Positions 17,230-48,840 of a DNA stretch of 48,840 nucleotides are shown one piece after another. The translations under genes were made by a program, and so were the position numbers. The stretch is from Flavobacteriales bacterium (GTDB taxonomy: Bacteria > Bacteroidota > Bacteroidia > Flavobacteriales > BACL11), in contig PAUF01000016.1 of assembly GCA_002712715.1 (NCBI GenBank), positions 68 to 48,907 on the forward strand. The letters run 5' to 3'. Position 1 is the first letter of the stretch, and each line of letters begins with the position of its first letter. The notes beneath the pieces are model-generated. The model was not told where the DNA came from, ran no database searches, and saw nothing but the letters and a program-made list of their open reading frames with translations.

Positions 17230-20200
17230 ATGAAATGGAATATACTTTTTTTCTTAGTTTTTTCTTTAATTATAGCTGAACTATATGCTCAAAGAGAAGT
17301 TGTTCTAGAATGGAATGATGATGAAAATGATCATAATTTTTGGTTTGAAGGAGCTGTGTTTCTAGAGAAATATAATGGTTTGCCAGTATATCAGGAGATT
17401 AAGACGCTAAGTGATGGGGTTGGATTTACAGTTGAAATTTTTGATATTGAATTTGAAGATGTTTCTAATTTAGAAAAAGAATATTTGAGCTTATTACATA
17501 AAAATAACGAAGTTGAGCATTCTTCTGATTTACTCACATCATCTATAGGAAATTATAACAGAATAATTATATTTCCATATATATCAATTGGAAATAATTA
17601 TAAAAGAATTAGTAAGTTTAAATTAACAACTAATACAAAATCCTCAAAAATTACAGAAAATTCTAACATAAATAAGATAAATTCTGAGTTAAATTCTGGT
17701 GATTGGTTTAAAGTTTCTGTTCAACAGAGTGGAGTATATTCTTTAAACGTTCAAGAATTAGAGATGTTAGGAATAAATACTAATTATCTTTCAATTAATT
17801 CTATACGGTTATTTGGTAATGGAGGAGGTATGTTGCCTTCACTTAATTCTCAATTTAGACACACAGATTTAATTGAAAACGCAATAGAAATTATTGATGA
17901 AAACAATAATGGATATTTTGACAACAATGATAGATTTTTATTTTATGCTGAGGATGTTGATAAATGGTATCATGATGATCAGAATTTAGGCACATACTAT
18001 CATGAAAAACATCTCTTTGAAGATGATAATTATTATTTTATAAAGATTAGTAGCTCAGGAAGTCCAAAAAGAATTAATTCATATGTTCCAAACTATAATA
18101 ATGATCTTAATTATTCAAATATATTTAATGACTATCAGTTTCATGAAGAAGAGTTAATTAATTTTATTCAGTCCGGTAAAAATTGGTACGGAGAAATATT
18201 CGATTTTAATCTTTACCAGGAATTTTCTTTTAATTTTCCTAATATTGTTAATGGATCTATTATTCATTTGGAATCTCGTGTTGCTGCTCGTTCTTTTGCT
18301 TCCTCATCATTTGACTTTACATATGATGGAAGTAATATAATGAATTTATCTCTTAACCCGGTAAGTTCAGGATTTGAAACAAATTATGCTTCTCTTGCTA
18401 ATAATTCATCATCTTTTACTGCTAATGACGATCAAATTAATATTGGAGTTAATTTTAATAGATTATCTTCTAGTCATAAAGGATGGTTAGATTTTATATC
18501 TCTTTCTGTAGAAAGGTATTTAAAATTTATTGGCAATCAAATGGAATTTAGAAAAACAATCAATTGCTTACAAGATCAATTATTTACTTTAGAGATCAGT
18601 GATTTTAGCGATGATTATTCTATATGGAATGTTTCTGAACCTACTAAAGTAATAAACCAGTTATTGACATCCGCTGGAAATGGAAAATACTTAATCAGTT
18701 ATGATGCAGATAGTGGTATATCTGATCAAAAATTTATTGCTTTTGATCGATCTCAGTTTCTTTCACCCAAATTAGAAGGTTCTGTAATAAATCAAAATTT
18801 ACATGGAGAAACAGATTTTGAAATGCTAATAGTTTCTCATGATAATTTTATTACTTCAGCGAATCAGTTATCAAATTTTCATTATATGAATAGTGGTAGA
18901 AAGTGTAAGGTTGTTACACCCGAGCAGATATATAACGAATTTTCCTCTGGAAAAAAGGATATTGCAGCGATACGAGATTATTGTAGATATTTACAAAAAA
19001 TTCCTAATAGCCAATTGAAATATCTTTTATTGCTTGGCGACGCTTCTTATGATCCTAAAGATCGAATTCCAAATAATACTAATTTTATTTTAACTTATCA
19101 ATCTGAGAATTCAATTAGCCCGTTGAATACTTATGCTACTGATGATTTTTTCGGTTTTCTTGATGATGATGAAGGGGTTTTTGCTAATGATTTGTTAGAT
19201 ATAGCTATTGGTAGATTGCCAGCAAAAACTCTTGAGGAAGCAAATAGTATGGTTAATAAGATTACTGAATACCATCAAAATTCTTCCAAAGGAGAATGGA
19301 GGAATATGACTTGTTTTATTGCAGATGATGGGGATACTGATGACGGTAATATTCATATGAATCAAGCAGAGAATTTATCTAATATTGTTGATGATAATTA
19401 TAATATTTATAATCTTAATAAAATATTCCTTGATGCATATATGCAAGAATCAACGCCCGTAGGTCCAAGAAGTCCAGATGCGAAACAGAGTATTAATAGG
19501 AGGATAGAAGAAGGAGCTCTGATAGTTAACTATACAGGCCATGGGGGAGAACTTGGATTAACTCAAGAAAGGATAATAGATATCGATCAAATAATTAATT
19601 GGGAGAATAAATTTAAACTTCCATTATTTATTACCGCAACATGTGAATTTGGTAGATTTGACAATCCAGATTTAATTTCTGGAGGTGAATATGTTATTTT
19701 AAATAATCAAGGAGGGGGTGTCGCTTTATTAACTACTACAAGATATGTATACTCTCATTTGAATTATACTCTAAATACTAATTTTATAAATACTGTTTTT
19801 GAAGATTTTAATGGAGAAAAACCTACACTTGGGGATATATTCTTACAGACCAAATCTATTAGTGGAACTTCTATTAATACAAATAAATTTATCCTTCTAG
19901 GAGATCCTATGATGAAATTATCTTATCCAGATTATCAAATAATAACAACTGAAATTACTGACACACTATCAGCTTTAGGAAAAGCATTTTTTTCAGGTCA
20001 AATTGTAAATATGATTGATTCAAGTTTAGTTGATAATTTTAATGGTATTGTCAATATTACTGTTTATGATAAGGAGAAGATAGTTACTACATTGGGTCAA
20101 GAATCTTCTACTCCAATGCCATATAGGCAACAGAACAATATTATTTATAAAGGAAAATCTACTGTAACTAATGGGCGTTTTACTTTTTCGTTTCTCGTTC

Positions 20201-20994
20201 CAAAAGATATTGATTACTCTATTGGAAATGGAAGAATCTCATATTATGCATATCATGATACTGAAAATCTGGATGCTAGTGGTTGGTTTGAACAATTTTA
20301 CGTTGGAGGCTTTTCTAATGAAAACATTGATGATGAATCAGGACCAATGGTTAGTTTATTCATGAATGATGAACAATTTATAGATGGAGGTATTACAGAT
20401 AAAAATCCTGTATTTTTAGCAATAATTTCAGATTCTTCTGGTATTAATACTGTTGGTAATAGTATAGGACATGATATTACTCTTATTTTAGATGATGAAA
20501 CAACTAATAAGATTATTTTAAATGAATATTATCAATCTGATATAGATAGTTATCAAAGCGGAAGAATTGAGTATCCATTAGATGAATTGTCACAAGGAAT
20601 GCATCAAATTGATTTTAAAATATGGGATATTCTTAATAACTCATCTCAATCCTCAATTGAATTTATTGTTGCAGAATCAGAGGATTTTGTTATTGAAAAC
20701 TTACTCAATTATCCCAATCCATTTACTCATAATACAGGTTTTTATTTTGAACATAATAGACCAAATCAGAATTTACAAGTTCAAATACAAATATTTACTG
20801 TTTCGGGTAAATTAGTAAAGACTATCAACTCAATAATTTCTTCTTTAGGATTTAGGGCTGGGCCTATAAATTGGAATGGAAATGATGATTATGAAGATAA
20901 GATTGGTAAGGGAACGTATTTGTATAAGATCAATGTATTAGATGAAAACGGTGAAGGTATTAATTTAGTTGAGAAATTAGTAATATTGAAATGA
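17230..20994 (+). CDS. porU: T9SS sortase PorU (peptidase C25 family)
   Basis: L.SG.WFKV...SGVY, IYNEFSSG, LLLLGDASYD, TDDFFG.LDD.EG, catalytic NYTGHGG and TATCEF, C-terminal NYPNPF CTD; directly upstream of porV. Confidence 0.94.
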   Translation: MKWNILFFLVFSLIIAELYAQREVVLEWNDDENDHNFWFEGAVFLEKYNGLPVYQEIKTLSDGVGFTVEIFDIEFEDVSNLEKEYLSLLHKNNEVEHSSDLLTSSIGNYNRIIIFPYISIGNNYKRISKFKLTTNTKSSKITENSNINKINSELNSGDWFKVSVQQSGVYSLNVQELEMLGINTNYLSINSIRLFGNGGGMLPSLNSQFRHTDLIENAIEIIDENNNGYFDNNDRFLFYAEDVDKWYHDDQNLGTYYHEKHLFEDDNYYFIKISSSGSPKRINSYVPNYNNDLNYSNIFNDYQFHEEELINFIQSGKNWYGEIFDFNLYQEFSFNFPNIVNGSIIHLESRVAARSFASSSFDFTYDGSNIMNLSLNPVSSGFETNYASLANNSSSFTANDDQINIGVNFNRLSSSHKGWLDFISLSVERYLKFIGNQMEFRKTINCLQDQLFTLEISDFSDDYSIWNVSEPTKVINQLLTSAGNGKYLISYDADSGISDQKFIAFDRSQFLSPKLEGSVINQNLHGETDFEMLIVSHDNFITSANQLSNFHYMNSGRKCKVVTPEQIYNEFSSGKKDIAAIRDYCRYLQKIPNSQLKYLLLLGDASYDPKDRIPNNTNFILTYQSENSISPLNTYATDDFFGFLDDDEGVFANDLLDIAIGRLPAKTLEEANSMVNKITEYHQNSSKGEWRNMTCFIADDGDTDDGNIHMNQAENLSNIVDDNYNIYNLNKIFLDAYMQESTPVGPRSPDAKQSINRRIEEGALIVNYTGHGGELGLTQERIIDIDQIINWENKFKLPLFITATCEFGRFDNPDLISGGEYVILNNQGGGVALLTTTRYVYSHLNYTLNTNFINTVFEDFNGEKPTLGDIFLQTKSISGTSINTNKFILLGDPMMKLSYPDYQIITTEITDTLSALGKAFFSGQIVNMIDSSLVDNFNGIVNITVYDKEKIVTTLGQESSTPMPYRQQNNIIYKGKSTVTNGRFTFSFLVPKDIDYSIGNGRISYYAYHDTENLDASGWFEQFYVGGFSNENIDDESGPMVSLFMNDEQFIDGGITDKNPVFLAIISDSSGINTVGNSIGHDITLILDDETTNKIILNEYYQSDIDSYQSGRIEYPLDELSQGMHQIDFKIWDILNNSSQSSIEFIVAESEDFVIENLLNYPNPFTHNTGFYFEHNRPNQNLQVQIQIFTVSGKLVKTINSIISSLGFRAGPINWNGNDDYEDKIGKGTYLYKINVLDENGEGINLVEKLVILK

Positions 20995-21026: not shown

Positions 21027-21034
21027 TATATTTG
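21027..21034 (+). promoter_or_regulatory. -7 promoter box (TATATTTG) just upstream of porV
   Basis: TAnnTTTG match ending 6 nt before ATG 21041; the track's TTG start at 21032 is part of this box. Confidence 0.6.
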
Positions 21035-21040
21035 CAAAAT

Positions 21041-22231
21041 ATGATAAAAATTAATAAAGTAATTTTAGTGTGTTTATTTCTTTCATTAGTAAGTATTTTT
21101 AAAATAGAAGCTCAGGGTACAGGTATTAATGATGATAATTTTTTGGGTGGTAATTTAAATACAATTACTACTGCAGTTCCTTTTCTTTTGATTTCTCCTG
21201 ATTCTAGGTCAGGAGCTATGGGAGATGTTGGTGTTGCTACTTCACCAGACGCAAGTTCAATGCATTGGAATCCCGCAAAAATGAGTTTTACTGAAGATAA
21301 TGTAGGAATTTCTGTTTCTATTGTTCCTTGGTTAAGAGAATTAGTGCCTGACATTAACTTACAATATATTAGTGGGTATTATAATTTTAATAATGATGAA
21401 TCTATTGGTTATGAGCTAAGATATTTTTCTTTAGGTGATATAACTTTTACTGATAATAATGGAAATGTTATAGGGCAATATAAGCCTAATGAAATGGCAT
21501 TAGGAACAGCTTATTCTAGAAAATTGAATCGTAATTTATCTATTGCTATATCAGCACGATATATATATTCTAATTTGACTGGAGGTCAAGCTGCTGGCGG
21601 CACTGAAACAATGGCAGGACAATCAATTGCTGCAGACGTTTCATCTTTCTATACTTATCCTACCCAAATATTTTCTAGAAATTCTCAGATGTCTTTCGGA
21701 TTAAATATTTCTAATATTGGAAATAAGATATCTTATACTGAAACTTTAACTAGAGATTTTATCCCAATTAACTTGAGGCTTGGGACAGCGCTAGCAACAG
21801 AATTTGATGACTATAATAGTTTGACTTTTGCTATAGATTTTAATAAGCTTTTGGTACCCTCACCTCCTTTAATAGATGATAACGGAAATATCATTAGAGG
21901 AAAGGATCCTGAAGTATCAGTTGTTTCTGGTATATTTCAATCTTTTGGTGATGCTCCAGATGGATTTTCTGAAGAATTACGTGAGGTAAATATTTCAACT
22001 GGATTAGAATATTGGTATGATAATCAGTTTGCTTTGAGATTTGGATATTTTCATGAACATAACACTAAAGGTGGAAGACAATATTTAACTTTTGGTTCAG
22101 GAATTAAGTATAATGTTTTTGCATTAGATTTTTCATACCTAGTTAGCACATCTAATATTGGAGGGACTAATCCTCTTGCTAATACGATGAGATTTACTTT
22201 GATTTTTGATTTAGGAGCAATATCTAATTAA
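21041..22231 (+). CDS. porV: T9SS shuttle protein PorV (start moved from 21032 to ATG 21041)
   Basis: ITTAVPFLLISPDSRSGAMGDVGVATSPD...WNPAK, RYFSLG.I, GYFHE...KG.RQY, PLANT.RF; porU-porV-ispF order. Confidence 0.95.
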   Translation: MIKINKVILVCLFLSLVSIFKIEAQGTGINDDNFLGGNLNTITTAVPFLLISPDSRSGAMGDVGVATSPDASSMHWNPAKMSFTEDNVGISVSIVPWLRELVPDINLQYISGYYNFNNDESIGYELRYFSLGDITFTDNNGNVIGQYKPNEMALGTAYSRKLNRNLSIAISARYIYSNLTGGQAAGGTETMAGQSIAADVSSFYTYPTQIFSRNSQMSFGLNISNIGNKISYTETLTRDFIPINLRLGTALATEFDDYNSLTFAIDFNKLLVPSPPLIDDNGNIIRGKDPEVSVVSGIFQSFGDAPDGFSEELREVNISTGLEYWYDNQFALRFGYFHEHNTKGGRQYLTFGSGIKYNVFALDFSYLVSTSNIGGTNPLANTMRFTLIFDLGAISN

Positions 22232-29641: not shown

Positions 29642-32600
29642 ATGAGAAGATTAATTGATAAAATATTGGAAGAAAGAATATTAGTACTGGACGGTGCTAT
29701 GGGTACAATGATTCAAGGATATAATTTAACAGAAAGTGATTTTAGAGGTGATAGATTTATTGATTCTATTTATGACCTTAAAGGAAATAATGATGTGTTA
29801 TCTATTACTCAACCTAATATAGTTTCTGAAATTCATGAAAAATATTTAGTAGCTGGAGCAGATATAATAGAGACAAATACATTTAGTTCTAATAGTATTG
29901 CGCAAGAAGATTATGGATTACAGTCTTCAGTATATGATTTGAATTATGAGTCAGCTAGAATTGCAAAAGATGCGGCTATTAAATACTCTTCTAATGAAAA
30001 ACCTAGATTTGTAGCTGGTTCAATAGGGCCTACTAATAGAACTGCATCTATTTCTCCTGATGTAAATAATCCAGCATATAGAAATATAACATTTGAACAA
30101 TTAAGAAAATCTTATTATGGTCAAGTTGGTGGTTTAATTGATGGTGGAGTTGATTTGCTTCTAGTAGAAACAGTTTTTGATACTTTAAACTGTAAAGCTG
30201 CATTGTATGCGATTATGCAGATTTTTGAAGAAAAAAATCTGCAAATTCCGATCATGGTTTCAGGAACAATTACTGATGAAAGTGGTAGAACTCTTTCAGG
30301 TCAGACAGCGGAAGCTTTTTTGAATTCAATTTCTCATGCTCCACTATTAAGTGTAGGATTTAATTGCGCTTTAGGTACTAAAGCTATGCAGCCGTATATA
30401 CAAGAGTTATCAAAGAAATCACCATATTTTATTAGTGCTTTTCCAAATGCAGGATTACCAAATGAAATGGGAAATTATGATGACACTCCAACAGCGATGT
30501 CTAAACAACTTGGTGATTTTTTAGATTTAGGTATTGTAAATATTATAGGTGGATGTTGTGGTACTACACCAGATCATATTAGAGAGTTCGTTGAAATTTC
30601 AAAAAATTTTAATCCCAGAAAAATACCTAAAATTGAAAAGAAATTAAGATTAAGTGGTCTTGAATCAGTTACAGTAGATTCTAATTCAAATTTTGTAAAT
30701 ATAGGTGAGAGAACTAATGTTATGGGTTCTAGTAAGTTTATGAAACTTATTAAAAATAAAGAATACGAGTTAGCTTTATCTGTTGCTCTAGATCAAGTAG
30801 AGAATGGTGCTCAAGTTATAGATATTAATATGGATGATGGGTTAATAGATGGAATGGAATCTATGACAGTTTTTTTAAATATGATAGCTTCAGATCCGGA
30901 TATTTCTAAGGTTCCGATAATGATAGATTCTTCTAAATGGGAGATTATAGAAGCTGGATTAAAATGTTTACAAGGTAAAGGGATTGTTAATTCTATATCC
31001 TTAAAAGAAGGAGAATCTATTTTTATTGAACAAGCTAAAAAGATAATGAGATATGGGGCAGCGGTAGTCATTATGGCTTTTGATGAAAATGGGCAGGCTG
31101 TAGATTATAATGATAAGATACGAATATGTAAAAGAGCTTATGATATTTTAGTTGACAATATTGGATTCCCTGCTGAGGATATTATATTTGATCCAAATAT
31201 TCTTACTGTTGCTACTGGGATTGAAGATCATGATAATTATGCTATAGATTTTATAAGATCTATAAAGTGGGTAAAGAAAAATCTACCATATGCAAAAGTT
31301 AGTGGGGGAGTAAGTAATGTCTCTTTTTCTTTTAGAGGTAATAATAAGGTAAGGTAGGCCATGCATTCAGCTTTTCTTTTTCATGCGATTAAAAATGGAA
31401 TGGATATGGGTATTGTTAATGCAGGTATGATCGAAGTGTATTCTGACATTCCATCGGATCTTTTAAATGCTGTAGAAGATGTTATATTTAACAATCATTC
31501 TTTATCTACTGAAAAACTTTTAGAGTTAGCAGAAATGTATAAGGGTAAGGGTAAACAAAAAGTAGAGGATCTTTCTTGGCGAGAAAAAAGTGTGGGAAAA
31601 AGATTGGAATACTCATTAGTTAAAGGAATTGTAAAATATATCGAGGATGACACAGAGGAAGCTAGAACAAATGCTAAAAAACCCCTTGATGTAATAGAAG
31701 GTCCTTTAATGAATGGAATGAATATAGTTGGTGATCTTTTTGGAAGCGGTAAGATGTTTCTTCCTCAAGTTGTGAAGAGCGCTAGGGTAATGAAGAAGTC
31801 TGTGGCTTATCTGACTCCATATATAGAAAATGATAAAACTCAAATTAAGAAGTCAGGTAAAATACTTATGGCAACTGTAAAAGGAGATGTGCATGATATT
31901 GGTAAGAATATTGTTTCGGTTGTTTTATCATGTAATAATTTTGAGATTATTGATTTAGGTGTAATGGTTTCATGTGAAAAAATTCTTTCGGCCGCTAAAA
32001 ATCATAATGTTGATATGATTGGTTTAAGTGGATTAATTACCCCTTCATTAGATGAAATGTCTTTCGTTGCTGAACAAATGCAATTAAATAATTTCAATAT
32101 ACCATTAATTATTGGTGGAGCTACTACATCTAAGGTTCATACTGCGGTAAAGCTAATGGATAAGTATACTAATAATATGATTGTTCATATTTTGGACGCT
32201 TCTAAATCTGTAAATATTTGCAATACTATTTTGGGTCCCAATGTTGAAGATTTTAAAAGAGATTTAAAGCAAGAATACACTGATATTAAGAAAAATTATT
32301 TAAACAGATTAAAATCTAAAGATCTTATTTCATTAGAAGATGCTCGAAAAAATTCATTTAAACTATCAGCTAATTATCAATCAGTTGAACCTAATACTTT
32401 AGGGGTAAGTTTGTATGATGAAATTTCTGTTGCATCGGTTGTTCCATATATAGACTGGACACCTTTCTTTATTTCTTGGGAAATGAGAGGTAAGTTCCCT
32501 AAAATATTTGATGATGAAAAATATGGTGTCGAAGCTAAAAAGCTTTATGATGACGCTAATCAAATGATTCAGAAAATTATTAATCATGATTGGGTGATTT

Positions 32601-33259
32601 TAAAATCTTTAGTTGGAATATGGAACGCTCGATCTGTTGGAGATGATGTTGAAGTATATCAAAACGGTCATAAAATAGAAACACTTAATTTTCTTAGGCA
32701 ACAATCTAGAAAGAAAAATTATAATATGTGTTTGTCAGATTATATTTCTAAAGAAAACGATTATATAGGTGCATTTATATGTACAGCGGGAATTGGTATA
32801 GATAAAAAGTTACAAGAATTTGATAATCAGTTGGATGATTATAATAGTATCCTATTGAAGTCAATTGCAGATCGACTAGCAGAAGCTTTAACTGAATATA
32901 TGCATGAAAAAGTAAGAAAAGAAATTTGGGGATATGGTAAAAATGAGAATTTTAATAATGAAGAGTTAATTAAAGAAAATTATAAAGGAATAAGGCCAGC
33001 TCCAGGTTACACAGCATGTCCTGATCATACTGAAAAATTAAAGCTATTTCTATTATTAGGTTCTGAGAAGATAGGAGTTGATCTTACAGAAAATATGGCA
33101 ATGACACCCAATGCTACCGTATGTGGATATTATTTTTCTTACCCTGAATCTAAATATTTTACAGTTGGAAAAGTTTTAGATGACCAAATTAATGATTATG
33201 CTAAAAGAAAAAATATGACCTCAAAGGAAGTTAATCAATGGTTGAGAACAAATATTTGA
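29642..33259 (+). pseudogene. metH: Cobalamin-dependent methionine synthase interrupted by one in-frame TAG (31355-31357); pseudogene, split gene or sequence error
   Basis: ORFs 29642-31357 (homocysteine domain DGAMGT...GGCCGT; pterin domain IGERTN...SN.SFSFRGN) and 31361-33259 (cap, DVHDIGKN B12 motif, RPAPGY.ACPDH activation domain) are in the same frame: GTA AGG TAG GCC ATG = V R * A M, against the usual VREAMH. Joined length 1205 aa. Confidence refers to the broken state; the metH identity is near certain. Confidence 0.6.
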
Positions 33260-42234: not shown

Positions 42235-45200
42235 ATGAAGAAAATATTTATAATATTTGTTTGTTCACTGATGTGTTTGAATAATTCTTATTCTCAATCG
42301 ATTCAGAATATTTCTATTACATCACCTATTCTATGTCATGGTGAACTTGCTGATATAAACATTCTGATTAATCAGACCTCTCCTCCAACAATATTGAAGC
42401 TAGTGGTTGGTTACTATCCTTTTCCAGGTGTTTTTGTTCCAATAACTTCGACAAATAATACTACAGTTGCTAGTATAAATGTTCCTGGATTATCTGCGCA
42501 AATTTATACTATAAGGTTAGTAGATTCATTATTGTATTATCCTACAAATGGATTTGGAGATCCAGCAGACCCTAATGCCATTTATGACGTAGATTCTATT
42601 GTTATCACCGAGCCTCCCCCAATAAATGTTGTAGAAAGTTCACAGAACGCTTCTAGTTTAGTTGTTGCTGATGGGAGTATTAATCTTGCAATATCTGGTG
42701 GCGTTGGCTTTTCATCTTCACCATGTATTTGGACTGGTCCAAATAATTTTTTTTCAAATAATTTGAATATTAATAATCTTTATGCTGGTGTGTATATATA
42801 CACAGTTATAGATTCAAATGGATGTGTTTTTTCTGATACAGTTGAAGTTAATGCTATTCAATTATGTAGCTATGGAAACGTGACTTCCTTTCCAACTATT
42901 TGTAATGGAGATGCTAATGGTCTCATAAATGTTGATTCTGTGTTCGGTTTACCTCCATTTAATTATTTTTTGGAGATTCAGGATTCTCTCTCTCAAAATT
43001 GGTACCCTGTAACAAACTTAACGATATATGATACTTTTGTTGTTTTTAATAATTTGTTTGCTGGGATTTATAGATATACATTATCCGATAGTATTGGATG
43101 TAATCTAACATCACCTAATATTAGCGTCCAGAATCCTACTCCAATAACTACAAATAACACTGTAACTAACTCTATCAATAATTCTTCATGCGATGGATCT
43201 ATATCAATTATTGTTAATGGTGGATTTGCACCTTTTTCACATTCTTGGTCTGGCCCAAATAATTTTTCTTCACTATCACCCAATTTAAACAATTTGTGTC
43301 CTGGTTTATACTGCGATAGTATTGTTGACAATAATGGATGTTCTGAAATTATTTGTGAAATTATAGATATTGAACCTCCTTGCATGCCTGAGTTAGAAAT
43401 TTCAAATGTTTTTTGTAATCAAGACAGTTCAGGAATAGCTATAGTTACTAAAACAGATAATGCTTATCCATTATTTATTTGGAAGAATGTTTTTGGAGAC
43501 ACGATAAGTATGGATACGTTCGCATTAAATTTGCCTGCCGGTTCATATACTTTTAACGCTTATAGTTTAGGGTTGCCGAATTCGTGTCCAGATACAACTA
43601 TTGTATTTGATATATTAGACTCAGAAATTGATTTAGTTTCATTTAATGGTAATGTTATTTGTGATGGAGATTCTACTTTTTTTGTTGCTGATCCTGTCAA
43701 TTTAGATTCAAATTTTTCATATCAAATTTTATTAGAAAATGAGTTTATTTTAGTAGGAGATTCATCATCTTATTATCCTCCTGGTACATATTCATATACT
43801 GTATTAGTTGATACAGGTAGTGGATTTTTAACTTGTTTTGATTCTGATCAAATAGAAGTTTTTGTTAATGATTTATCAATAGATTCTTTAACTATAGTTA
43901 ATGAGATTTGCGTAAATTCACTTGGAAGTATATTAGTGTCGGCGTCTTCCTCTAATTTACCACTGTCCTATTCTATTAACTCAAGTACCCAATTAAGTTC
44001 ACTTTTTAATAATCTAACAAACAACTTTTATGATATTTCGGTTGAGGATAATCTTTCATGTAATGTTAGTATCGATTCAGTTTATGTTGATATAAGTTCT
44101 TCAATTGAAATATTAATCGATTCGGCTATGGAAACTTGCGCGCTAAATGATGGATATATTAATTTGATTCTAGATGGTGGCTTTGGTTTTTATCAATTTT
44201 CATTAGATAGCGGAGTGACTTTCTCCAGTTCTTTTAATACAGATACTATTTTGATTGATTCTTTATCTAAAGGGCAATACAGTATTATTATTAGAGATGA
44301 CTCTTTGTGCGTGTCTGAAATGCAAAATATTTTTTTAAATAGGACTCCAAATCCAAAAATTGATTCTGTCTTAGTGACAAATGAAAGTTGTTGCGGATTT
44401 GATGCTACTATTTCAGTTTTTGTTAATCCTTCTAATAATTTACTATATTCTTTAGATTCATTTAACAATAATCAATCAAATAATATTTTTGACTCACTTT
44501 CTAGAGGTTTTTATAATGTTTTAGTGATTGATAGTAATGACTGTACAGCTAATACGTTAGTTACTATTATTGCTGATTCATTACCTCAAATTAATTTAAC
44601 GGTTGGCGCTACTGATGTTGTCTGTTATGGTGATTCTAACGGAACTTTTAAAGTTTATTATCCTGACAATTGCTATTCATACGATTTATATAGGTATACA
44701 TTTCTTTCACCACAAATTTTATTAGATACAGGTACGTATTTTAATAATCTTATTTCAGGTTATTATGGTGTTATAGCTACTTCTAACTCTGGCGCATGTA
44801 TTGATTCATCATTTATTAGGTTTATTGATGAACCTGCATCATTATCTTACGATTCTTTGTTGATTCAAGATGTCACATGTATTTTAGATGATTCTTGCAA
44901 TGGTTCTGTTGCTATATTTTCTCAAATATCTGGTGGTGTTTCACCTTATTTTTACTATTTAAAAGAATTAGATAACAATATCCCGATTGGATTAAATTCT
45001 ACAACAGATACTTTTGAACTTTTGTGTCCAGGCTTGTATGAAATGCAGATAATTGATGGTAATGCATGCATTGATATAGATACTATTAATATTAACGATC
45101 TATCCTTAAAAATTGATTCATTTGTTGTAGAAAATGTAAGTTGTTATAATGGTAGTGATGGTTTAATTGAGGTTTTTTCTAGTGGGGGATTAGGGAATTA

Positions 45201-47376
45201 TGTATATGTTTGGTCAAATGCTGATACAACAAAAATAATTGACAGTTTGAATAGAGATTTTTACACTGTTAATGTGTATGATTCTACATTATGCATGGTT
45301 TTTGATTCCGTTTTTGTAGCTCAACCAGATACTCTCCAATTCAAGATTTTGGAGAATGGGAAAAAACCTGAGACATGTATGGGAGTTTCATATGATGGGG
45401 AAATATATTTAGAAATCACTGGAGGTACTCCTCCATACAATTATATCTGGAATTCTTTTTCTAGCATTTCAGGCAATACAGGTTTTGGATTTGGTGATAC
45501 TATATTTAATTTATCATATGATACAATTGCTATTGATGTTACAGACGCTAATTATTGTTCTGGCTCTCCTACATGGGGAACTGTAAACGTAACCATTGTA
45601 GACGCTTTAAATGCTGATAATCCCTTATCGATTGATACAATATATGTTACTTCAGATCCTTTGTGTTATGGGGGGCAGTCTGGTTATATTGATATAGAAT
45701 TAGATGGAGGAGATATTCCAGTATATTATTCTATTGATAGTGGCTTTACATATGTAAGTACCGATTCTTTTGTTTCACTTAGCTCTGGAAAATATTATAT
45801 TTATGTCATGGATACATATGGATGTTTAGACAGTGCTGTTGTTGATATTCATCAATCTGATAAACTTGAAGTAATTTATGATTCAATCAAACATGTTAGT
45901 TGTTATGAAGGAAATGATGGTTTAATTTCTATTTCTGTAATTGGAGGATTTCCTCCATTTGAATACATGTGGATTCCTTCAATGAATGATTCTAGTTTTA
46001 TTAATGAATTATCTGCAGTTCCACATATAGTTAGAGTTACTGATTCTAATGGATGTACATTATTAGACACAATAATTTTACATGAATTAACTGATCCGAT
46101 TCAAACTCAAACTAATGTTATTTCAGAGGTGAGTTGTTTTAATGGATCTGATGGAAGCATTACTACTGTTCCAATTGGCGGATATCCTAACTATACCTAT
46201 ATTTGGATTAACAGTCTTGGAGACACTGTTTCATATAATCAGTCTCCAGTTGATCTGCCTTCTGATAATTATTTAGTATTTGTTTCAGATTCTTTTAGTT
46301 GTGGTCCTGCTTCAGATAGTATATTTTTAAGTCAGTCAGCCAAATTAGAGATTGATGTAATTAATGTGATTGATAACACTTGTCATGGAGAAAGATTTGG
46401 TGAAATGCAGTTCTCATTTTCAGGAGGGATTCCATCTTATAATATTTTTGTTATGGAAAATGGAAATATTTATTCTAGTTCAACTGCTTTAATAGATAAT
46501 TTACCTTCGGGACTTTATCAAGTTTGGGCTGTAGATAATAAATCTTGTATCTCAGATACTCTTAATGGTATTAAATTAGGTGAGCCAGGAAAGATTGAGG
46601 TAAATAATCTTGTTTCTGATTTAAATTGTTATCAATCATATGATGGTAATATGCAGATTTCAATATTAGGAGGACTTAGTCCATACAATGTAAATATATA
46701 TCATGAAAATTCTCTTCTAGAAAATCAATTTGTAAATCAATCAGAATTGTTTGAAATTTATAATCTTGATATAGGTACCTATTTGATAGGTGTCACTGAT
46801 TATAATAATTGTTATAATGATTCTTTATTTTATGTTCTTCAACCTGAAGAAATTATTGCGGATTTTGATTCGAATTTAGAATTTGGTAGAAAGCCATTAA
46901 GATTTTCTGCCTCTAATGCCTCAATTGGAGGACATGTTTTTTATTGGGATTTTGATAATGATTCATTGCTTACTACATTTTATTTACAAAATGTTGATAT
47001 GGAATTCTATGATCAGGGACAATATGATATTATGCTTATTGCTCATGATACATTGTTAGGAAATCAGTGTAATGATACATTAGTTAAGTCAATTAATGTG
47101 GAAGGTTATAACGTTTATAATGTTTTCACCCCAAATAATGATGGTATTAATGATATTTTTAATTTTAATGAATGGATGATTAATGGTATTTATGTGGAAA
47201 TATTTAATAGGTGGGGTGAAAAAATTTATCATTGGGAAGATGTTGATTATGGATGGGATGGGAAAGGATACAGTGGTCAAAAAATGGAAGAAGGTGTCTA
47301 TTTTTATCGAATGACAGCTACTGGAGTTGATGGTGCGCATTTTGAAGAAAATGGTAGTATTACATTGCTAAGATAG
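42235..47376 (+). CDS. Large surface protein with SprB-like repeats, PKD domain and T9SS type B (gliding motility-associated/CHU_C) CTD
   Basis: Signal peptide; many C.G..DG.I.....GG..PY.Y.W...L..G.Y...V.D.NGC repeats; PKD-like FYWDFD; C-terminal NVFTPNNDGINDIF...IFNRWG..I...WDG...GVYFY...G.ITLLR. Confidence 0.9.
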   Translation: MKKIFIIFVCSLMCLNNSYSQSIQNISITSPILCHGELADINILINQTSPPTILKLVVGYYPFPGVFVPITSTNNTTVASINVPGLSAQIYTIRLVDSLLYYPTNGFGDPADPNAIYDVDSIVITEPPPINVVESSQNASSLVVADGSINLAISGGVGFSSSPCIWTGPNNFFSNNLNINNLYAGVYIYTVIDSNGCVFSDTVEVNAIQLCSYGNVTSFPTICNGDANGLINVDSVFGLPPFNYFLEIQDSLSQNWYPVTNLTIYDTFVVFNNLFAGIYRYTLSDSIGCNLTSPNISVQNPTPITTNNTVTNSINNSSCDGSISIIVNGGFAPFSHSWSGPNNFSSLSPNLNNLCPGLYCDSIVDNNGCSEIICEIIDIEPPCMPELEISNVFCNQDSSGIAIVTKTDNAYPLFIWKNVFGDTISMDTFALNLPAGSYTFNAYSLGLPNSCPDTTIVFDILDSEIDLVSFNGNVICDGDSTFFVADPVNLDSNFSYQILLENEFILVGDSSSYYPPGTYSYTVLVDTGSGFLTCFDSDQIEVFVNDLSIDSLTIVNEICVNSLGSILVSASSSNLPLSYSINSSTQLSSLFNNLTNNFYDISVEDNLSCNVSIDSVYVDISSSIEILIDSAMETCALNDGYINLILDGGFGFYQFSLDSGVTFSSSFNTDTILIDSLSKGQYSIIIRDDSLCVSEMQNIFLNRTPNPKIDSVLVTNESCCGFDATISVFVNPSNNLLYSLDSFNNNQSNNIFDSLSRGFYNVLVIDSNDCTANTLVTIIADSLPQINLTVGATDVVCYGDSNGTFKVYYPDNCYSYDLYRYTFLSPQILLDTGTYFNNLISGYYGVIATSNSGACIDSSFIRFIDEPASLSYDSLLIQDVTCILDDSCNGSVAIFSQISGGVSPYFYYLKELDNNIPIGLNSTTDTFELLCPGLYEMQIIDGNACIDIDTININDLSLKIDSFVVENVSCYNGSDGLIEVFSSGGLGNYVYVWSNADTTKIIDSLNRDFYTVNVYDSTLCMVFDSVFVAQPDTLQFKILENGKKPETCMGVSYDGEIYLEITGGTPPYNYIWNSFSSISGNTGFGFGDTIFNLSYDTIAIDVTDANYCSGSPTWGTVNVTIVDALNADNPLSIDTIYVTSDPLCYGGQSGYIDIELDGGDIPVYYSIDSGFTYVSTDSFVSLSSGKYYIYVMDTYGCLDSAVVDIHQSDKLEVIYDSIKHVSCYEGNDGLISISVIGGFPPFEYMWIPSMNDSSFINELSAVPHIVRVTDSNGCTLLDTIILHELTDPIQTQTNVISEVSCFNGSDGSITTVPIGGYPNYTYIWINSLGDTVSYNQSPVDLPSDNYLVFVSDSFSCGPASDSIFLSQSAKLEIDVINVIDNTCHGERFGEMQFSFSGGIPSYNIFVMENGNIYSSSTALIDNLPSGLYQVWAVDNKSCISDTLNGIKLGEPGKIEVNNLVSDLNCYQSYDGNMQISILGGLSPYNVNIYHENSLLENQFVNQSELFEIYNLDIGTYLIGVTDYNNCYNDSLFYVLQPEEIIADFDSNLEFGRKPLRFSASNASIGGHVFYWDFDNDSLLTTFYLQNVDMEFYDQGQYDIMLIAHDTLLGNQCNDTLVKSINVEGYNVYNVFTPNNDGINDIFNFNEWMINGIYVEIFNRWGEKIYHWEDVDYGWDGKGYSGQKMEEGVYFYRMTATGVDGAHFEENGSITLLR

Positions 47377-47451: not shown

Positions 47452-47853
47452 ATGAGAAAAACTATTTTTTTAATTCTTTTGATATTTGTAATGACCTCAT
47501 TTGGTCAGGAAACTTTATTTGAGAAATATAAAGAAATCGATGGTGTCGAGATTAAAAAGGCTATTGTAGAATGTAACGGTAATCAGGTATTGACATTCTC
47601 ATTTAGAAATGACAATTCGCATTCAGTTAAGTTAAGTTGGTATGAGGAAGTATGGATGGATGGTATTTGTAAACAGAATGGAAGCGGAGAGGAGAATTTT
47701 CGAACATTAACATTATCTGCAAATCAAATAATAGAGGGTGACTGTGATTTTAGAGAGAGTTTTTATATTGGATCGAAAATTAAAAGAGGAAAAAGGTTCT
47801 CGCTTTTAACATTTTTCGATTTTAAGAATTTAATTGTTGAAAATCTAAATTAG
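47452..47853 (+). CDS. Small secreted hypothetical protein
   Basis: Signal peptide ending SFG-Q; beta-strand-like pattern; three Cys; promoter box upstream. Confidence 0.75.
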   Translation: MRKTIFLILLIFVMTSFGQETLFEKYKEIDGVEIKKAIVECNGNQVLTFSFRNDNSHSVKLSWYEEVWMDGICKQNGSGEENFRTLTLSANQIIEGDCDFRESFYIGSKIKRGKRFSLLTFFDFKNLIVENLN

Positions 47854-47857
47854 AAAT

Positions 47858-48840
47858 ATGAAGAAATTTTATTGTTTAATTGTATTATCATTTTTAAGTT
47901 TTCATGTACATTCACAATGTACTGTTAATGCTTTGTCTTATATATGGCCTGATACAAATAATATAAATTTTTGTTTCCAACTAGGCGACACTTTGGTAAT
48001 TGACGCAACAAATAATCAAGTAGCTACTCAATTAGATAATGATTTTGAATTAGGTACTTTTGGTAGTGGATGGCAAACCGGTTTATCAGCAACGATAGTT
48101 TTAAATAATCCTGCTCACTGTGCTTGGCCACCCCCACTTAACCCTAATCCTAATAATGCTTATGCGTGGATGGGGAATGCGGCTGCTCATCCGAGAAATT
48201 TAGAATCTGTTGATTTTGATTTGACAAATTGTTATAATCTTGAATTCGATATGAAGTATGCAACGCAAAGTCAAGCGGGTCCCTGCGAAGGTCCTGACTT
48301 ATTTTGTGAGGGTGTAAGAATTCAGTATTCCAATGATCAAGGAAATACATGGTATAACTGGGATGGATCTTTAGAACAGCCATGGTCTCCTCCAGGAAGT
48401 GGATTGCCTGATGCGTTAACAGGGAATTGTGCGACACATCCGGTTTATAATTATACAGGATTAGGATATTGGGATCCTGACACATTAAATGTTGGTGGGT
48501 CAGCAAGCAGTCCGTTTGTAAATTGGTTTCATGTGAATACTGCTCTCCCTGCGGCTGCACGTACTCCTCAAACTAGGATTAGATGGATTCAATTATCTTC
48601 TTCCGCTAATTCATTTGATCATTGGGGATTAGATAATGTTAAAATAGGCTGTCAAGCTTATGCTCCAGGAGATTATACTTGGACAGGTGGTGCTGCTGTA
48701 GATACTATACCTCCTCATTTGCCACAGGGAGGGTTACATCTTATTACTCCAGATATTCTTGGAACTTATGAATGGGTAGTAACATTTGTCGATAGTTCTG
48801 TTATGGCGCAAGGTGCTCCAGGTCCTGATATATGTCATGA
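47858..48840 (+). CDS. Secreted protein with a Reelin-subrepeat-like domain; 3' end runs off the window (not in the ORF track)
   Basis: Manual translation from ATG 47858 is open for 327 codons to the window end: MKKFYCLIVLSFLSFHVHS-QCTV...RNLESVDFDLTNCYNLEFDMKY...CEGPDLFCEGVRIQYSNDQGNTW...LPAAARTPQTRIRWIQLSSSANSFDHWGLDNVKIG. Confidence 0.88.
   Translation, partial: MKKFYCLIVLSFLSFHVHSQCTVNALSYIWPDTNNINFCFQLGDTLVIDATNNQVATQLDNDFELGTFGSGWQTGLSATIVLNNPAHCAWPPPLNPNPNNAYAWMGNAAAHPRNLESVDFDLTNCYNLEFDMKYATQSQAGPCEGPDLFCEGVRIQYSNDQGNTWYNWDGSLEQPWSPPGSGLPDALTGNCATHPVYNYTGLGYWDPDTLNVGGSASSPFVNWFHVNTALPAAARTPQTRIRWIQLSSSANSFDHWGLDNVKIGCQAYAPGDYTWTGGAAVDTIPPHLPQGGLHLITPDILGTYEWVVTFVDSSVMAQGAPGPDICH

Follow-up and report, generated by a model that had tools for sequence, protein, structure and literature searches.

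A Reelin-subrepeat-type head on a putative fibrillar T9SS surface protein of a marine Flavobacteriales bacterium

The locus and the extent of the gene

The window analysed here is a stretch of 48,840 nucleotides from the small (1.55 Mb), AT-rich genome of a marine Flavobacteriales bacterium; the features under discussion are collected in Table 1. At the 3' end of the window, where an earlier note had described an open reading frame without a stop, the ORF listing gives an ATG-started frame of 327 aa (47858..48838, + strand), no stop being found within the window; its translation contains the stretches quoted in that note. The gene goes on past the window and ends at about window-equivalent position 52142, the last window base directly preceding an N. 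It had been considered that the frame might close just past the window. In the present assembly it stays open until aa 1219, where a stop follows a frameshift located near aa 1207, within an N-rich patch. The full-length picture comes from an intact public copy, P0001, which is 1422 aa long and, as far as aa 1207, agrees with this frame wherever a residue is determined. The genome's own assembly shows the broken frame, and the intact form is that of P0001.

Table 1. Position of the features in the window
Feature	Position	Strand	Basis or remark
PorU, T9SS sortase removing type A sorting domains	17230..20994	+	NF033707, 1295 bits, cut-off 420
PorV, T9SS outer-membrane shuttle protein	21032..22231	+	NF033710, 494 bits, cut-off 250
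Upstream neighbour, 1713-aa SprB-repeat protein, type B sorting domain	42235..47376	+	PF13573 166 bits, CHU_C 60.8, TIGR04131 47.8
5' part (aa 1-327) of the ~1422-codon gene, predicted T9SS-secreted surface protein	47858..48840	+	open 3' end, continues in contig
Probable Sec signal peptide, aa 1-20, first mature residue Gln	47858..47917	+	by eye: KK, hydrophobic run, VHS then QC
Short Cys-bearing N-terminal segment, aa 21-54	47918..48019	+	family consensus QCxxxxxxxxxxxxCxGxxVxLxA
Reelin-subrepeat-type jelly-roll head, aa 55-266	48020..48655	+	family HMM
PF21471-matched part of head, aa 111-264	48188-48649	+	Pfam
Asp-box (BNR) hairpin motif S-N-D-Q-G-N-T-W, aa 158-165	48329..48352	+	aligned to Reelin repeat 3 Asp-box
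Lineage-specific 34-aa insert, aa 169-202, Trp/Pro/Gly-rich, directly after the Asp-box hairpin	48362..48463	+	hmmalign
Start of small beta-rich linker domain, aa 267 to ~340	48656..48840	+	model strands, SprB repeats after

Taken at face value, the frameshift near aa 1207 and the stop at aa 1219 would mean a pseudogene, i.e. a gene broken in this organism and giving no full-length product. This is scarcely credible: the break falls exactly in the N-rich stretch, all 18 differences from P0001 are either an X at an N position or lie after the patch, the frame downstream of the break still encodes an intact sorting domain (39.6 bits in this genome), and every orthologue (17 clusters, 74-100% identity) is 1418-1433 aa long. 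Since P0001 is intact, the break was taken as an assembly artefact.

To judge from the orthologue lengths, from an insert as conserved as its flanks (see below) and from the recurrence of the stretch in marine metagenome runs of nine studies, with two runs as possible sources, the gene is maintained. The transcript check covered two metatranscriptome runs. One (X15) gave a single 168-nt contig with one mismatch, informative neither on strand nor on level and possibly due to DNA carry-over; the other (X20) gave a single 181-nt contig with 11 mismatches, likely from a relative. Being RNA-library contigs with possible DNA carry-over, neither was counted as proof of expression.

Architecture of the protein and the secretion machinery

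From N- to C-terminus, the protein comprises a probable signal peptide, a single jelly-roll head (aa 55-266), a small beta-rich linker, a stalk built of SprB repeats and a T9SS sorting tail of type A. The N-terminus, MKKFYCLIVLSFLSFHVHS followed by QC, resembles a Sec signal peptide by eye, and Q-C is also found after about 20 residues in the family consensus. In the predicted structure, model residues 1-17 have a low pLDDT and are followed by two short strands; the linker shows strands at model residues 252-306 (pLDDT 66-83). The stalk of P0001 extends from about aa 340 to 1340 and is made of SprB repeats (PF13573) of about 80 aa each; a regex search revealed seven repeat motifs, with four of the six spacings between 76 and 84 aa.

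The earlier note had proposed to look downstream for a T9SS C-terminal domain and for further copies of the head. The former was found at aa 1349-1421 of P0001: it is of type A (TIGR04183, 38.4 bits for a cut-off of 23) and is matched as well by PF18962 (Por_Secre_tail, 40.7 bits, cut-off 27). The type B domain (TIGR04131 / CHU_C) is absent from the gene, type A alone being detected. The latter were not found, the head being the single module of its kind in the whole protein, which is also devoid of any match to the EGF family.

Besides PorU and PorV, both encoded in the window, SprA is encoded elsewhere in the genome (SprA_N, 574.8 bits); a GldM-like match scored 168 bits, below the cut-off of 180. 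The T9SS genes and the SprB repeats point to the Bacteroidota. The type A domain and the presence of PorU, PorV and SprA bear out the proposal of a probable T9SS adhesin, binding itself being putative. The upstream neighbour (Table 1) opens an uninterrupted row of four giant cargo genes with SprB repeats. Both SprB-repeat genes flanking the gene specify a type B sorting domain, and the heads of the neighbouring stalk genes are different. With a putative binding head, a tandem-repeat stalk and an anchor in that spatial order, the protein has the layout of a fibrillar adhesin.

The N-terminal head is a Reelin-subrepeat homologue

The head was matched by PF21471 (Reelin_subrepeat-B) at 66.8 bits (E 2.1e-18, cut-off 27) over profile positions 23-127 of 127, and at 67.8 bits in a six-frame search of the genome. 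The domain had been placed at about 48194-48649 from the sequence, and the Pfam span (Table 1) agrees with this. The same model matched 34 of the 36 members of the family alignment. When the PDB was searched with phmmer, all five matches were Reelin, the best being 2ddu (E 1.4e-11). With a profile of the bacterial family, the Reelin chains were found at E values from 7.5e-64 to 6.9e-37 over profile positions 51-227; among the matches listed, the best stretches of the other PDB entries fell within profile positions 141-413, for the most part further downstream than the head, and the non-Reelin matches inside the head region were two weak ones (E 0.28 and 0.56). Ranks 1 to 8 of the Foldseek search were Reelin as well (E 2.2e-9 to 4.6e-8); this ranking of folds is that of Foldseek alone, on a predicted model with a head core at pLDDT 80-92.

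The earlier note had itself raised the possibility of a head that is merely a CBM, MAM or cleaved-adhesin jelly roll carrying an Asp-box, i.e. of a convergent or generic likeness. There are hints in that direction. The clusters returned by a language-model feature search (ESM Atlas) had been auto-named 'cleaved adhesin' (0.95) and 'choice-of-anchor J' (0.91). In the Foldseek list, Reelin was followed by CBM27 (2.9e-5), with the gingipain cleaved-adhesin (K1-K3), Eph LBD and MAM structures also found, down to about 4e-4, and one of the 36 family members gave a weak CBM_4_9 match (E 0.0049). However, the CBM, cleaved-adhesin and MAM folds had E values about 10^4 worse than Reelin, and the PDB sequence matches to the head were Reelin apart from the two weak profile matches. 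In addition, Cleaved_Adhesin (PF07675) or MAM (PF00629) was found at E <= 0.01 in none of the 36 family members, and no Cleaved_Adhesin, MAM or CBM profile matched the query head at E <= 1 in Pfam. A search of P0001 against NCBIfam (E <= 0.001) assigned the head domain to no family. The ESM Atlas lead was rejected as unsupported by Pfam (36 members) and NCBIfam (P0001). Together with an agreement of motifs that concerns the whole domain and not the Asp-box alone, these results leave a generic likeness as the least credible of the readings considered here.

An Asp-box is defined as S/T-x-D/N-x-G-x-x-W (PMC4882317, in its available text). That of the head, 'QYSNDQGNTW', aligns with 'QYSHDAGMSW' and 'QYSNDNGILW' of Reelin repeat 3; aa 157, 162 and 165 (Y137, G142 and W145 of the first row of the alignment) are at least 90% conserved. 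The motifs of the C-terminal strands, R-W-x-Q ... D-x-W-[AG]-[IL]-D-[DN]-V, are also present: 'TRIRWIQ...DHWGLDNVKI' aligns with 'TRFRWIQ...FGLDGVYI' and 'FRWWQ...WALDDVLI' of 2ddu. The Reelin-matching motifs are spread in this way along the whole domain, beyond the Asp-box. Two cysteines, C88 and C143 (C68 and C123 in first-row numbering), reach a conservation of at least 90% across the bacterial family, which suggests that they form a disulphide in the head. By its profile, PDB sequence and Foldseek matches, the head is a true Reelin-subrepeat homologue, as the earlier note had claimed.

The insert after the Asp-box

A Trp/Pro/Gly-rich loop insertion of about 50 aa had been announced in the head. 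There is indeed an insert, but it is shorter: the two quoted stretches are separated by 56 residues, of which hmmalign gives 34 as inserted after profile column 105, and the others are normal domain. The length at this site was 33-34 aa in the 18 orthologue rows and 21-29 aa in 14 other single-head rows, with a maximum of 18 in 47 animal modules and of 1 in 31 bacterial tandem modules; the orthologue group has the longest insert seen at the site. Its mean identity in the 18 orthologues (0.835) is close to that of the flanks (0.825 and 0.863). The insert is poorly modelled (pLDDT 40-51); placed beside the Asp-box hairpin, it probably forms part of a putative binding surface, and the ligand specificity that the earlier note saw in it is conjectural.

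Distribution of the module and relation to the animal subrepeats

Of 401 genomes sampled in the phylum, 31 had PF21471 above the Pfam cut-off, and 832 cluster representatives matched. All 25 relatives in the public protein collection have precomputed PF21471 matches. All of them (670-2134 aa) carried PF21471 plus a T9SS sorting domain, PF18962 in 17 of them and PF13585 in 8. Such bacteria commonly have the module, for which a public domain model already exists. Other bacterial proteins have 12 to 35 such modules in tandem, without EGF; in the same Pfam scan, which left out P0042 (5983 aa), the animal-type matches were accompanied by EGF_Teneurin, EGF_2 and Reeler.

A recent foreign origin of the head was considered and rejected. 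The head has 40.6% GC in a window of 30% GC; the excess is confined to codon positions 1 and 2 (0.49 and 0.50), GC3 being 0.23 in the head and varying from 0.11 to 0.27 along the gene.

A quick tree of bacterial and eukaryotic matches, of the kind suggested in the earlier note, was built. In this unrooted tree, where the labels eukaryote and bacterium were given by domain content, the bacterial tandem arrays were nearest to all 47 animal subrepeats examined (support 76-84), and the head was far from the animal ones. As to the bearing on the origin of Reelin that had been expected of the locus, the bacterial homologues are real, but they are common and caught by Pfam, and other bacterial modules lie closer to the animal ones than this head does. 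Bacteria have a large and varied pool of the module, in single adhesin-type heads and in long tandem arrays. The Reelin subrepeat may at its root be a prokaryotic surface-protein module, and the animal rod may derive from one that was taken over from bacteria or is common to both; we consider this possible but rather doubtful, the unrooted tree with its labels by domain content giving no direction of transfer.

Proposed function

We propose that the gene, of about 1422 codons, specifies a fibrillar T9SS surface protein with the Reelin-type head as its binding tip; our estimate of the probability of this reading is about 0.72. The route of type A cargo (Sec, SprA, processing by PorU) is established in Porphyromonas and Flavobacterium. 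By analogy, the protein would be exported by Sec and then pass through SprA; PorU would remove the sorting domain and join the new C-terminus to the outer membrane. With the C-terminus linked there, the SprB stalk would therefore project the N-terminal head outward and hold it away from the cell, where it could serve as a putative binding tip. Not all type A cargo is anchored; some is released. The putative ligand would most likely be a glycan, a particle or a cell surface, since the folds that come closest after Reelin are jelly rolls of carbohydrate-binding and adhesin type.

Homology alone is not predictive of binding, because most Reelin subrepeats are structural modules and not ligand sites. 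The head could accordingly be a structural cap, or a folding or spacing module without a ligand of its own, and the protein a passive surface-coat fibre. This would fit with Reelin, whose subrepeats mainly form a rod, the Asp-boxes keeping the modules together (PMC2716378, in its available text), and with the bacterial tandem proteins, whose 12 to 35 modules look structural. Yet there is just one module, and it sits right at the N-terminal tip of a long stalk, where binding domains are usually found; of the 159 single-module proteins, 147 have theirs beginning in the first 100 residues. Moreover, the lineage-specific surface insert is under the same constraint as the core, and the different heads of the neighbouring stalk genes are what is expected of exchangeable functional tips. 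A purely structural head is, in our opinion, unlikely.

We consider it very unlikely that the protein is a mobile gliding adhesin of the SprB type, which the gliding motor would carry over the surface of the cell. It does have many SprB repeats, its distant relatives are publicly named 'gliding motility-associated', and the neighbouring genes have SprB-like type B sorting domains. Its own sorting domain, however, is of type A (TIGR04183) and not of type B, and type A cargo is processed by PorU and is not known to be put on the gliding track by an SprF-like partner; the small size of the genome and, in a search for gliding genes that covered GldM, a match under its cut-off also argue against gliding. 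In conclusion, the protein is a fresh member of a catalogued domain family; it is most likely a fibrillar adhesin exported by the T9SS, with this head as its binding tip.

Comparison with known systems

In sequence as in fold, the Reelin subrepeats (PF21471; 2DDU, 2E26, 3A7Q/5B4X, 6A48, 7LYU) and the head are of one domain family. Common to both are the jelly roll with an Asp-box hairpin in its middle, the PCEGPD...EGV..QYS..G.TW series and the terminal F/I-R-W-x-Q ... D-H-W-G-L-D-N-V. Reelin proper is defined by two subrepeats flanking an EGF, eight times over; here there is one module instead of A-EGF-B pairs, with neither EGF nor Reeler, it is carried by a SprB stalk with a T9SS tail, and its 34-aa insert is without counterpart in the 47 animal modules.

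The single-head T9SS cargo proteins of Bacteroidota with PF21471 (for example P0018-P0025, P0028, P0035, P0039, P0052), named 'gliding motility-associated C-terminal domain-containing protein' at their source, constitute the protein's own family. Their common plan is a probable signal peptide and a Reelin-type head at the N-terminus, with repeats (SprB, PKD or Ig_7) between the head and a T9SS sorting domain; what sets the orthologue group apart is that its head goes with a stalk made purely of SprB repeats and a tail of type A, and has the longest insert. No tested function was found in the literature for any single-head member.

SprB of Flavobacterium johnsoniae has the same family of stalk repeats (PF13573) and is also secreted by the T9SS; it is far larger and has a type B sorting domain, whereas a type A domain and a Reelin-type head are found here. 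Gingipain K1-K3, choice-of-anchor J, CBM27/CBM4 and MAM, many of them found on T9SS cargo, share the broad jelly roll; they differ by weaker Foldseek matches and by the lack of any Cleaved_Adhesin or MAM profile match in the 36 family members. The head-stalk-anchor layout, with the head far from the anchor, is that of the fibrillar adhesins (Monzon and Bateman, PMC9210967). The main text of that paper has no occurrence of Reelin, SprB, Bacteroidetes, type IX, Por_Secre_tail or CHU_C, and the combination of a Reelin-type head with a T9SS anchor is therefore not named in it. In our search of the literature, no paper was found on whole-domain bacterial homologues of Reelin subrepeats; in their available text, the papers touching on Reelin repeats, evolution and bacteria (including PMC2716378 and PMC4882317) speak only of the Asp-box/BNR motif.

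What the locus means

A domain familiar mainly from a brain-patterning protein is here tied to an abundant class of bacterial surface fibres, a tie which Pfam already contains implicitly. To marine microbiologists the locus offers a neat case of exchangeable heads on a shared SprB stalk, within a streamlined genome. In the study of Reelin, a bacterial head of one module would offer an easy model of the fold and, if the subrepeat did have a prokaryotic root, the bacterial heads could show an ancestral ligand-binding role of that fold.

Extent and architecture of the query protein

The open reading frame proposed in the earlier note begins with an ATG and has no stop up to the window end, and its translation holds the residue stretches that had been quoted for it. 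The contig extends past the window and the frame, which might have closed just beyond, stays open for 1219 codons in all before closing inside an N-dense patch; directly 3' of the patch, another frame resumes and terminates in a C-terminal sorting domain. An intact public copy of the protein, P0001 (1422 aa), shows 100% identity across the query region. Because its 18 differences from the genome frame are found only at N-derived X positions or after the N-rich patch, we read the frame break as an assembly artefact and the true length as 1422 aa, though the genome alone gives no proof. Because of the patch, the gene looks frameshifted and gains a false stop codon; single Ns were also noted (see table).

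On the 327-aa piece, the Pfam profile PF21471 (Reelin_subrepeat-B, cut-off 27 bits) matched aa 111-264 with an E-value of 2.1e-18 and 66.8 bits (profile positions 23-127 of 127). No other Pfam family was near its cut-off, the remaining rows being far below theirs. In P0001, Pfam and NCBIfam found the same head, together with SprB repeats (160.8 bits), a Por_Secre_tail (aa 1349-1421, 40.7 bits, cut-off 27) and TIGR04183, the type A sorting domain of type IX secretion (T9SS; 38.4 bits, cut-off 23). The C-terminal sorting domain that the earlier note had proposed to look for is thus present above cut-off. A simple motif count gave seven repeat signatures in P0001, with four of the six spacings at 76-84 aa. 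Judged by eye, the N-terminus is of the Sec type.

Features of the genome GCA_002712715.1 (W, window, C16 68-48907; C16, contig PAUF01000016.1; L002, stretch of C16 that begins with gene 2 and runs on beyond the window; L004 and L005, loci on contigs C9 and C1)
Feature	Location	Strand	Length	Remark
PorU	W 17230-20991			1295 bits
PorV	W 21032-22228			494 bits
SprA_N	contig C7			574.8 bits
MetH, first ORF	W 29642-31357	+		NF007024 positions 11-580
MetH, second ORF	W 31361-33259	+		NF007024 positions 583-1229
Giant SprB gene 1	W 42235-47376		1713 aa	type B sorting domain
Small ORF	W 47452-47853	+	133 aa	
Giant SprB gene 2 (query), in window	W 47858-48838	+	327 aa	PF21471 above cut-off
Head of query protein	W 48020-48655	+		aa 55-266
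Giant SprB gene 2, whole	L002:1-4285		about 1422 aa (whole)	type A sorting domain
Giant SprB gene 3	L002:4374-12230		2618 aa	type B sorting domain
Giant SprB gene 4	L002:12286-16707		at least 1474 aa	type A sorting domain
Single Ns	C16 48908, 50130, 50132, 50573, 50912			
N-dense patch	C16 51534-51632			about window-equivalent 51467-51565
Paralogue	L004 (G000:C9:15721-19152), ORF from 2205 downward	-	1804 aa	PF21471 54.8 bits
Large protein	L005 (G000:C1:1-2393)	-		PF21471 19.2 bits, sub-threshold, near C-terminal part

Likeness of the head to Reelin subrepeats

Homology to the Reelin subrepeat, as claimed in the earlier note, is upheld by sequence, profile and structure searches. When the 327 aa were compared by phmmer with all PDB sequences, the five distinct sequences found at E <= 10 were all Reelin (best match 2ddu, E = 1.4e-11), with alignments spanning the Asp-box stretch and the C-terminal strands. 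A family alignment of 36 members was assembled from our own hits (the query first, 28 whole proteins below 520 aa and seven locus segments); 34 members match PF21471 at E <= 0.01. Its profile met the Reelin chains of the PDB along profile positions 51-227, with E-values between 7.5e-64 and 6.9e-37. For the other 17 sequences among the matches listed, the best stretch was within positions 141-413, for the most part in Ig-like or sorting-domain regions that lie downstream in the full-length proteins aligned; the head region is touched by two of these sequences (E-values 0.28 and 0.56). The AlphaFold2 model built for aa 21-327 (mean pLDDT 72.8, pTM 0.70, jelly-roll core pLDDT 80-92) gave Reelin chains at ranks 1-8 in a Foldseek search of the PDB (E-values 2.2e-9 to 4.6e-8). 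TM-scores on the query reach a modest 0.39-0.45, which is explained by the N-terminal segment, insert and linker that are part of the model too.

The head could also have been a generic CBM, MAM or cleaved-adhesin jelly roll. Such folds do come up in Foldseek, as runners-up (CBM27, 2.9e-5; gingipain K3, 3.3e-5) or next below (HpiC1-type cyclases, EphA2, and the MAM-bearing astacin and meprin), and CBM_4_9 weakly matches one of the 36 alignment members; Cleaved_Adhesin and MAM match none of them in Pfam at E <= 0.01. The outcome that the earlier note had set against its own reading, i.e. generic jelly rolls equalling Reelin, did not occur. An ESM Atlas feature search pointed to 'cleaved adhesin' and 'choice-of-anchor J' clusters: since the profile searches (Pfam, NCBIfam) do not bear out these names, neither identity was retained and the likeness is taken as superfamily-level only. 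Published work on Reelin repeats, in the parts available, deals with the Asp-box / BNR motif and with a fold that resembles those of CBM and cleaved-adhesin domains.

The insert, put at about 50 aa in the earlier note, is shorter: 34 residues of the query (aa 169-202), directly behind the Asp-box hairpin, are additional to the family HMM, where they follow column 105, and the rest are normal domain residues. At this site the insert is of 33-34 aa in the 18 orthologue rows, 21-29 aa in the 14 other single-head rows with at least 20 aa, at most 18 aa in the 47 rows of animal modules and at most 1 aa in the 31 rows of bacterial tandem modules. Mean identity to the query over the 18 orthologue rows was 0.835 in the insert versus 0.825 and 0.863 in the flanks. 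Loops thus grow readily at this site, and that of the query is under constraint. In the model the insert is uncertain (pLDDT 40-51).

Occurrence of the module and relation to animal Reelin

A PF21471 search of the genome found three places: the query gene, a paralogue and a large protein (see table). In the paralogue, the head comes directly after the signal peptide and the first 735 aa are free of SprB repeats. In a survey of 401 genomes evenly drawn from the phylum (this one included), PF21471 was found at E <= 0.001 in 91 and above cut-off in 31, with a best score of 104.7 bits over the full profile; none of 14 control genomes had a match. A word-indexed search restricted to proteins of 670-2134 aa returned 25 relatives, of which 17 are orthologues (74-100% identity, 1418-1433 aa). 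All 25 are precomputed with PF21471 and a T9SS sorting domain (PF18962 in 17, PF13585 in eight).

When aa 55-266 were used in an exhaustive search, 832 cluster representatives matched at E <= 0.001, 511 at 1e-10 and nine at 1e-30; 150 were listed. All of the 19 proteins scanned with Pfam have PF21471. Five (P0030, P0033, P0044, P0074 and P0163) are of the animal type with EGF modules, one having a Reeler domain. Six are arrays of 3-12 modules without EGF, and three of them have bacterial markers (P0029, weak Por_Secre_tail; P0038, Por_Secre_tail and PKD; P0060, Big_13 and Big_7). The other eight have one or two matched stretches (two in P0028), with T9SS tails in all save P0053 and P0078. Among single-module proteins, the local HMM placed the module start within the first 100 residues in 147 of 159.

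Tandem Reelin-type modules without EGF, 3-35 per protein, were seen in P0029, P0032, P0037, P0038, P0060, P0080 and, outside the Pfam scan, P0042. The latter has 35 modules in 5983 aa; the 12 modules of P0029 have spacers of ~80 aa with two Cys each.

A quick, unrooted FastTree tree (227 rows, 164 columns) was made from domain instances cut from the proteins in hand: 47 rows from three EGF-bearing proteins (P0030, P0163, P0074) and 31 from six EGF-less arrays, in both cases limited to instances with 130 or more of the 165 profile positions covered, plus the query and 148 of the 159 single-module proteins (P0031, P0033, P0042 and P0044 were left out). With labels given by domain content and rows chosen by likeness to the query, all animal rows were found to one side of a single branch (support 76). 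Nearest to them came the tandem arrays of bacteria (27 + 4 rows, supports 84 and 76), with the single heads further out; the query belongs to an orthologue set of 19 rows (support 100). The tree shows that the query head is not closely related to the animal modules, and gives no direction of transfer. Nor is there a sign of recent import: GC is 40.6% in the head versus 30% in the window, but the excess sits in codon positions 1 and 2 (the protein is Gly/Ala/Pro/Trp-rich) and GC3 shows just a slight rise that stays inside the range seen along the gene.

Whether bacterial homologues were catalogued had been left open in the earlier note. A Reelin-subrepeat domain model, PF21471, already exists and public collections tag these bacterial proteins with it; in the literature searched, we found no discussion of whole-domain bacterial homologues. 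The Reelin-type head on the query protein is correct and neat, yet no surprise to Pfam users.

Neighbouring genes and metagenomes

Four giant SprB-repeat genes for T9SS cargo follow one another at this locus, the query gene in second place; along them the sorting types alternate (B, A, B, A), and different N-terminal heads sit on a shared stalk. The third has at its start a cupredoxin head resembling plastocyanin/azurin (PF00127, aa 50-129, 41 bits, cut-off 21.2), which suggests a common stalk with swapped heads. A copper-protein fold at a T9SS fibre tip is unusual. The small ORF upstream has a signal-peptide-like N-terminus and no Pfam or NCBIfam match; as it ends 4 nt before the query gene start, the two may be co-transcribed. 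Elsewhere in the window, MetH (methionine synthase) is in two adjacent ORFs, through a frameshift or because the gene is naturally split. Marine metagenome runs from nine studies contain the query stretch again, and two of the runs may be sources of this DNA; the independent DNA runs X3 and X4 contain near-identical pieces of it.

Secretion and proposed arrangement

The T9SS machinery is present in the genome (SprA, PorV and PorU genes, see table); a GldM-like match, at 168 bits, is below the cut-off of 180. In T9SS biology, PorU removes the sorting domain of type A cargo, which is then fastened to the outer membrane through its new C-terminus. By analogy, PorU would cleave the sorting domain off the query protein, the new C-terminus would be tethered to the outer membrane, and the N-terminal head would thereby be held at the distal end of a ~1000-residue stalk. 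A head-stalk-anchor arrangement is, in the parts available of the work on them, the layout of fibrillar adhesins (PMC9210967; 10.1101/2020.12.07.414375), to which the query protein, with its head at the far end of an anchored stalk, would be alike. A term search of the main text of the survey PMC9210967 found neither Reelin nor T9SS terms. Because the arrangement matches that of fibrillar adhesins, the head is taken to be a putative binding tip, and its insert may be what shapes the binding.
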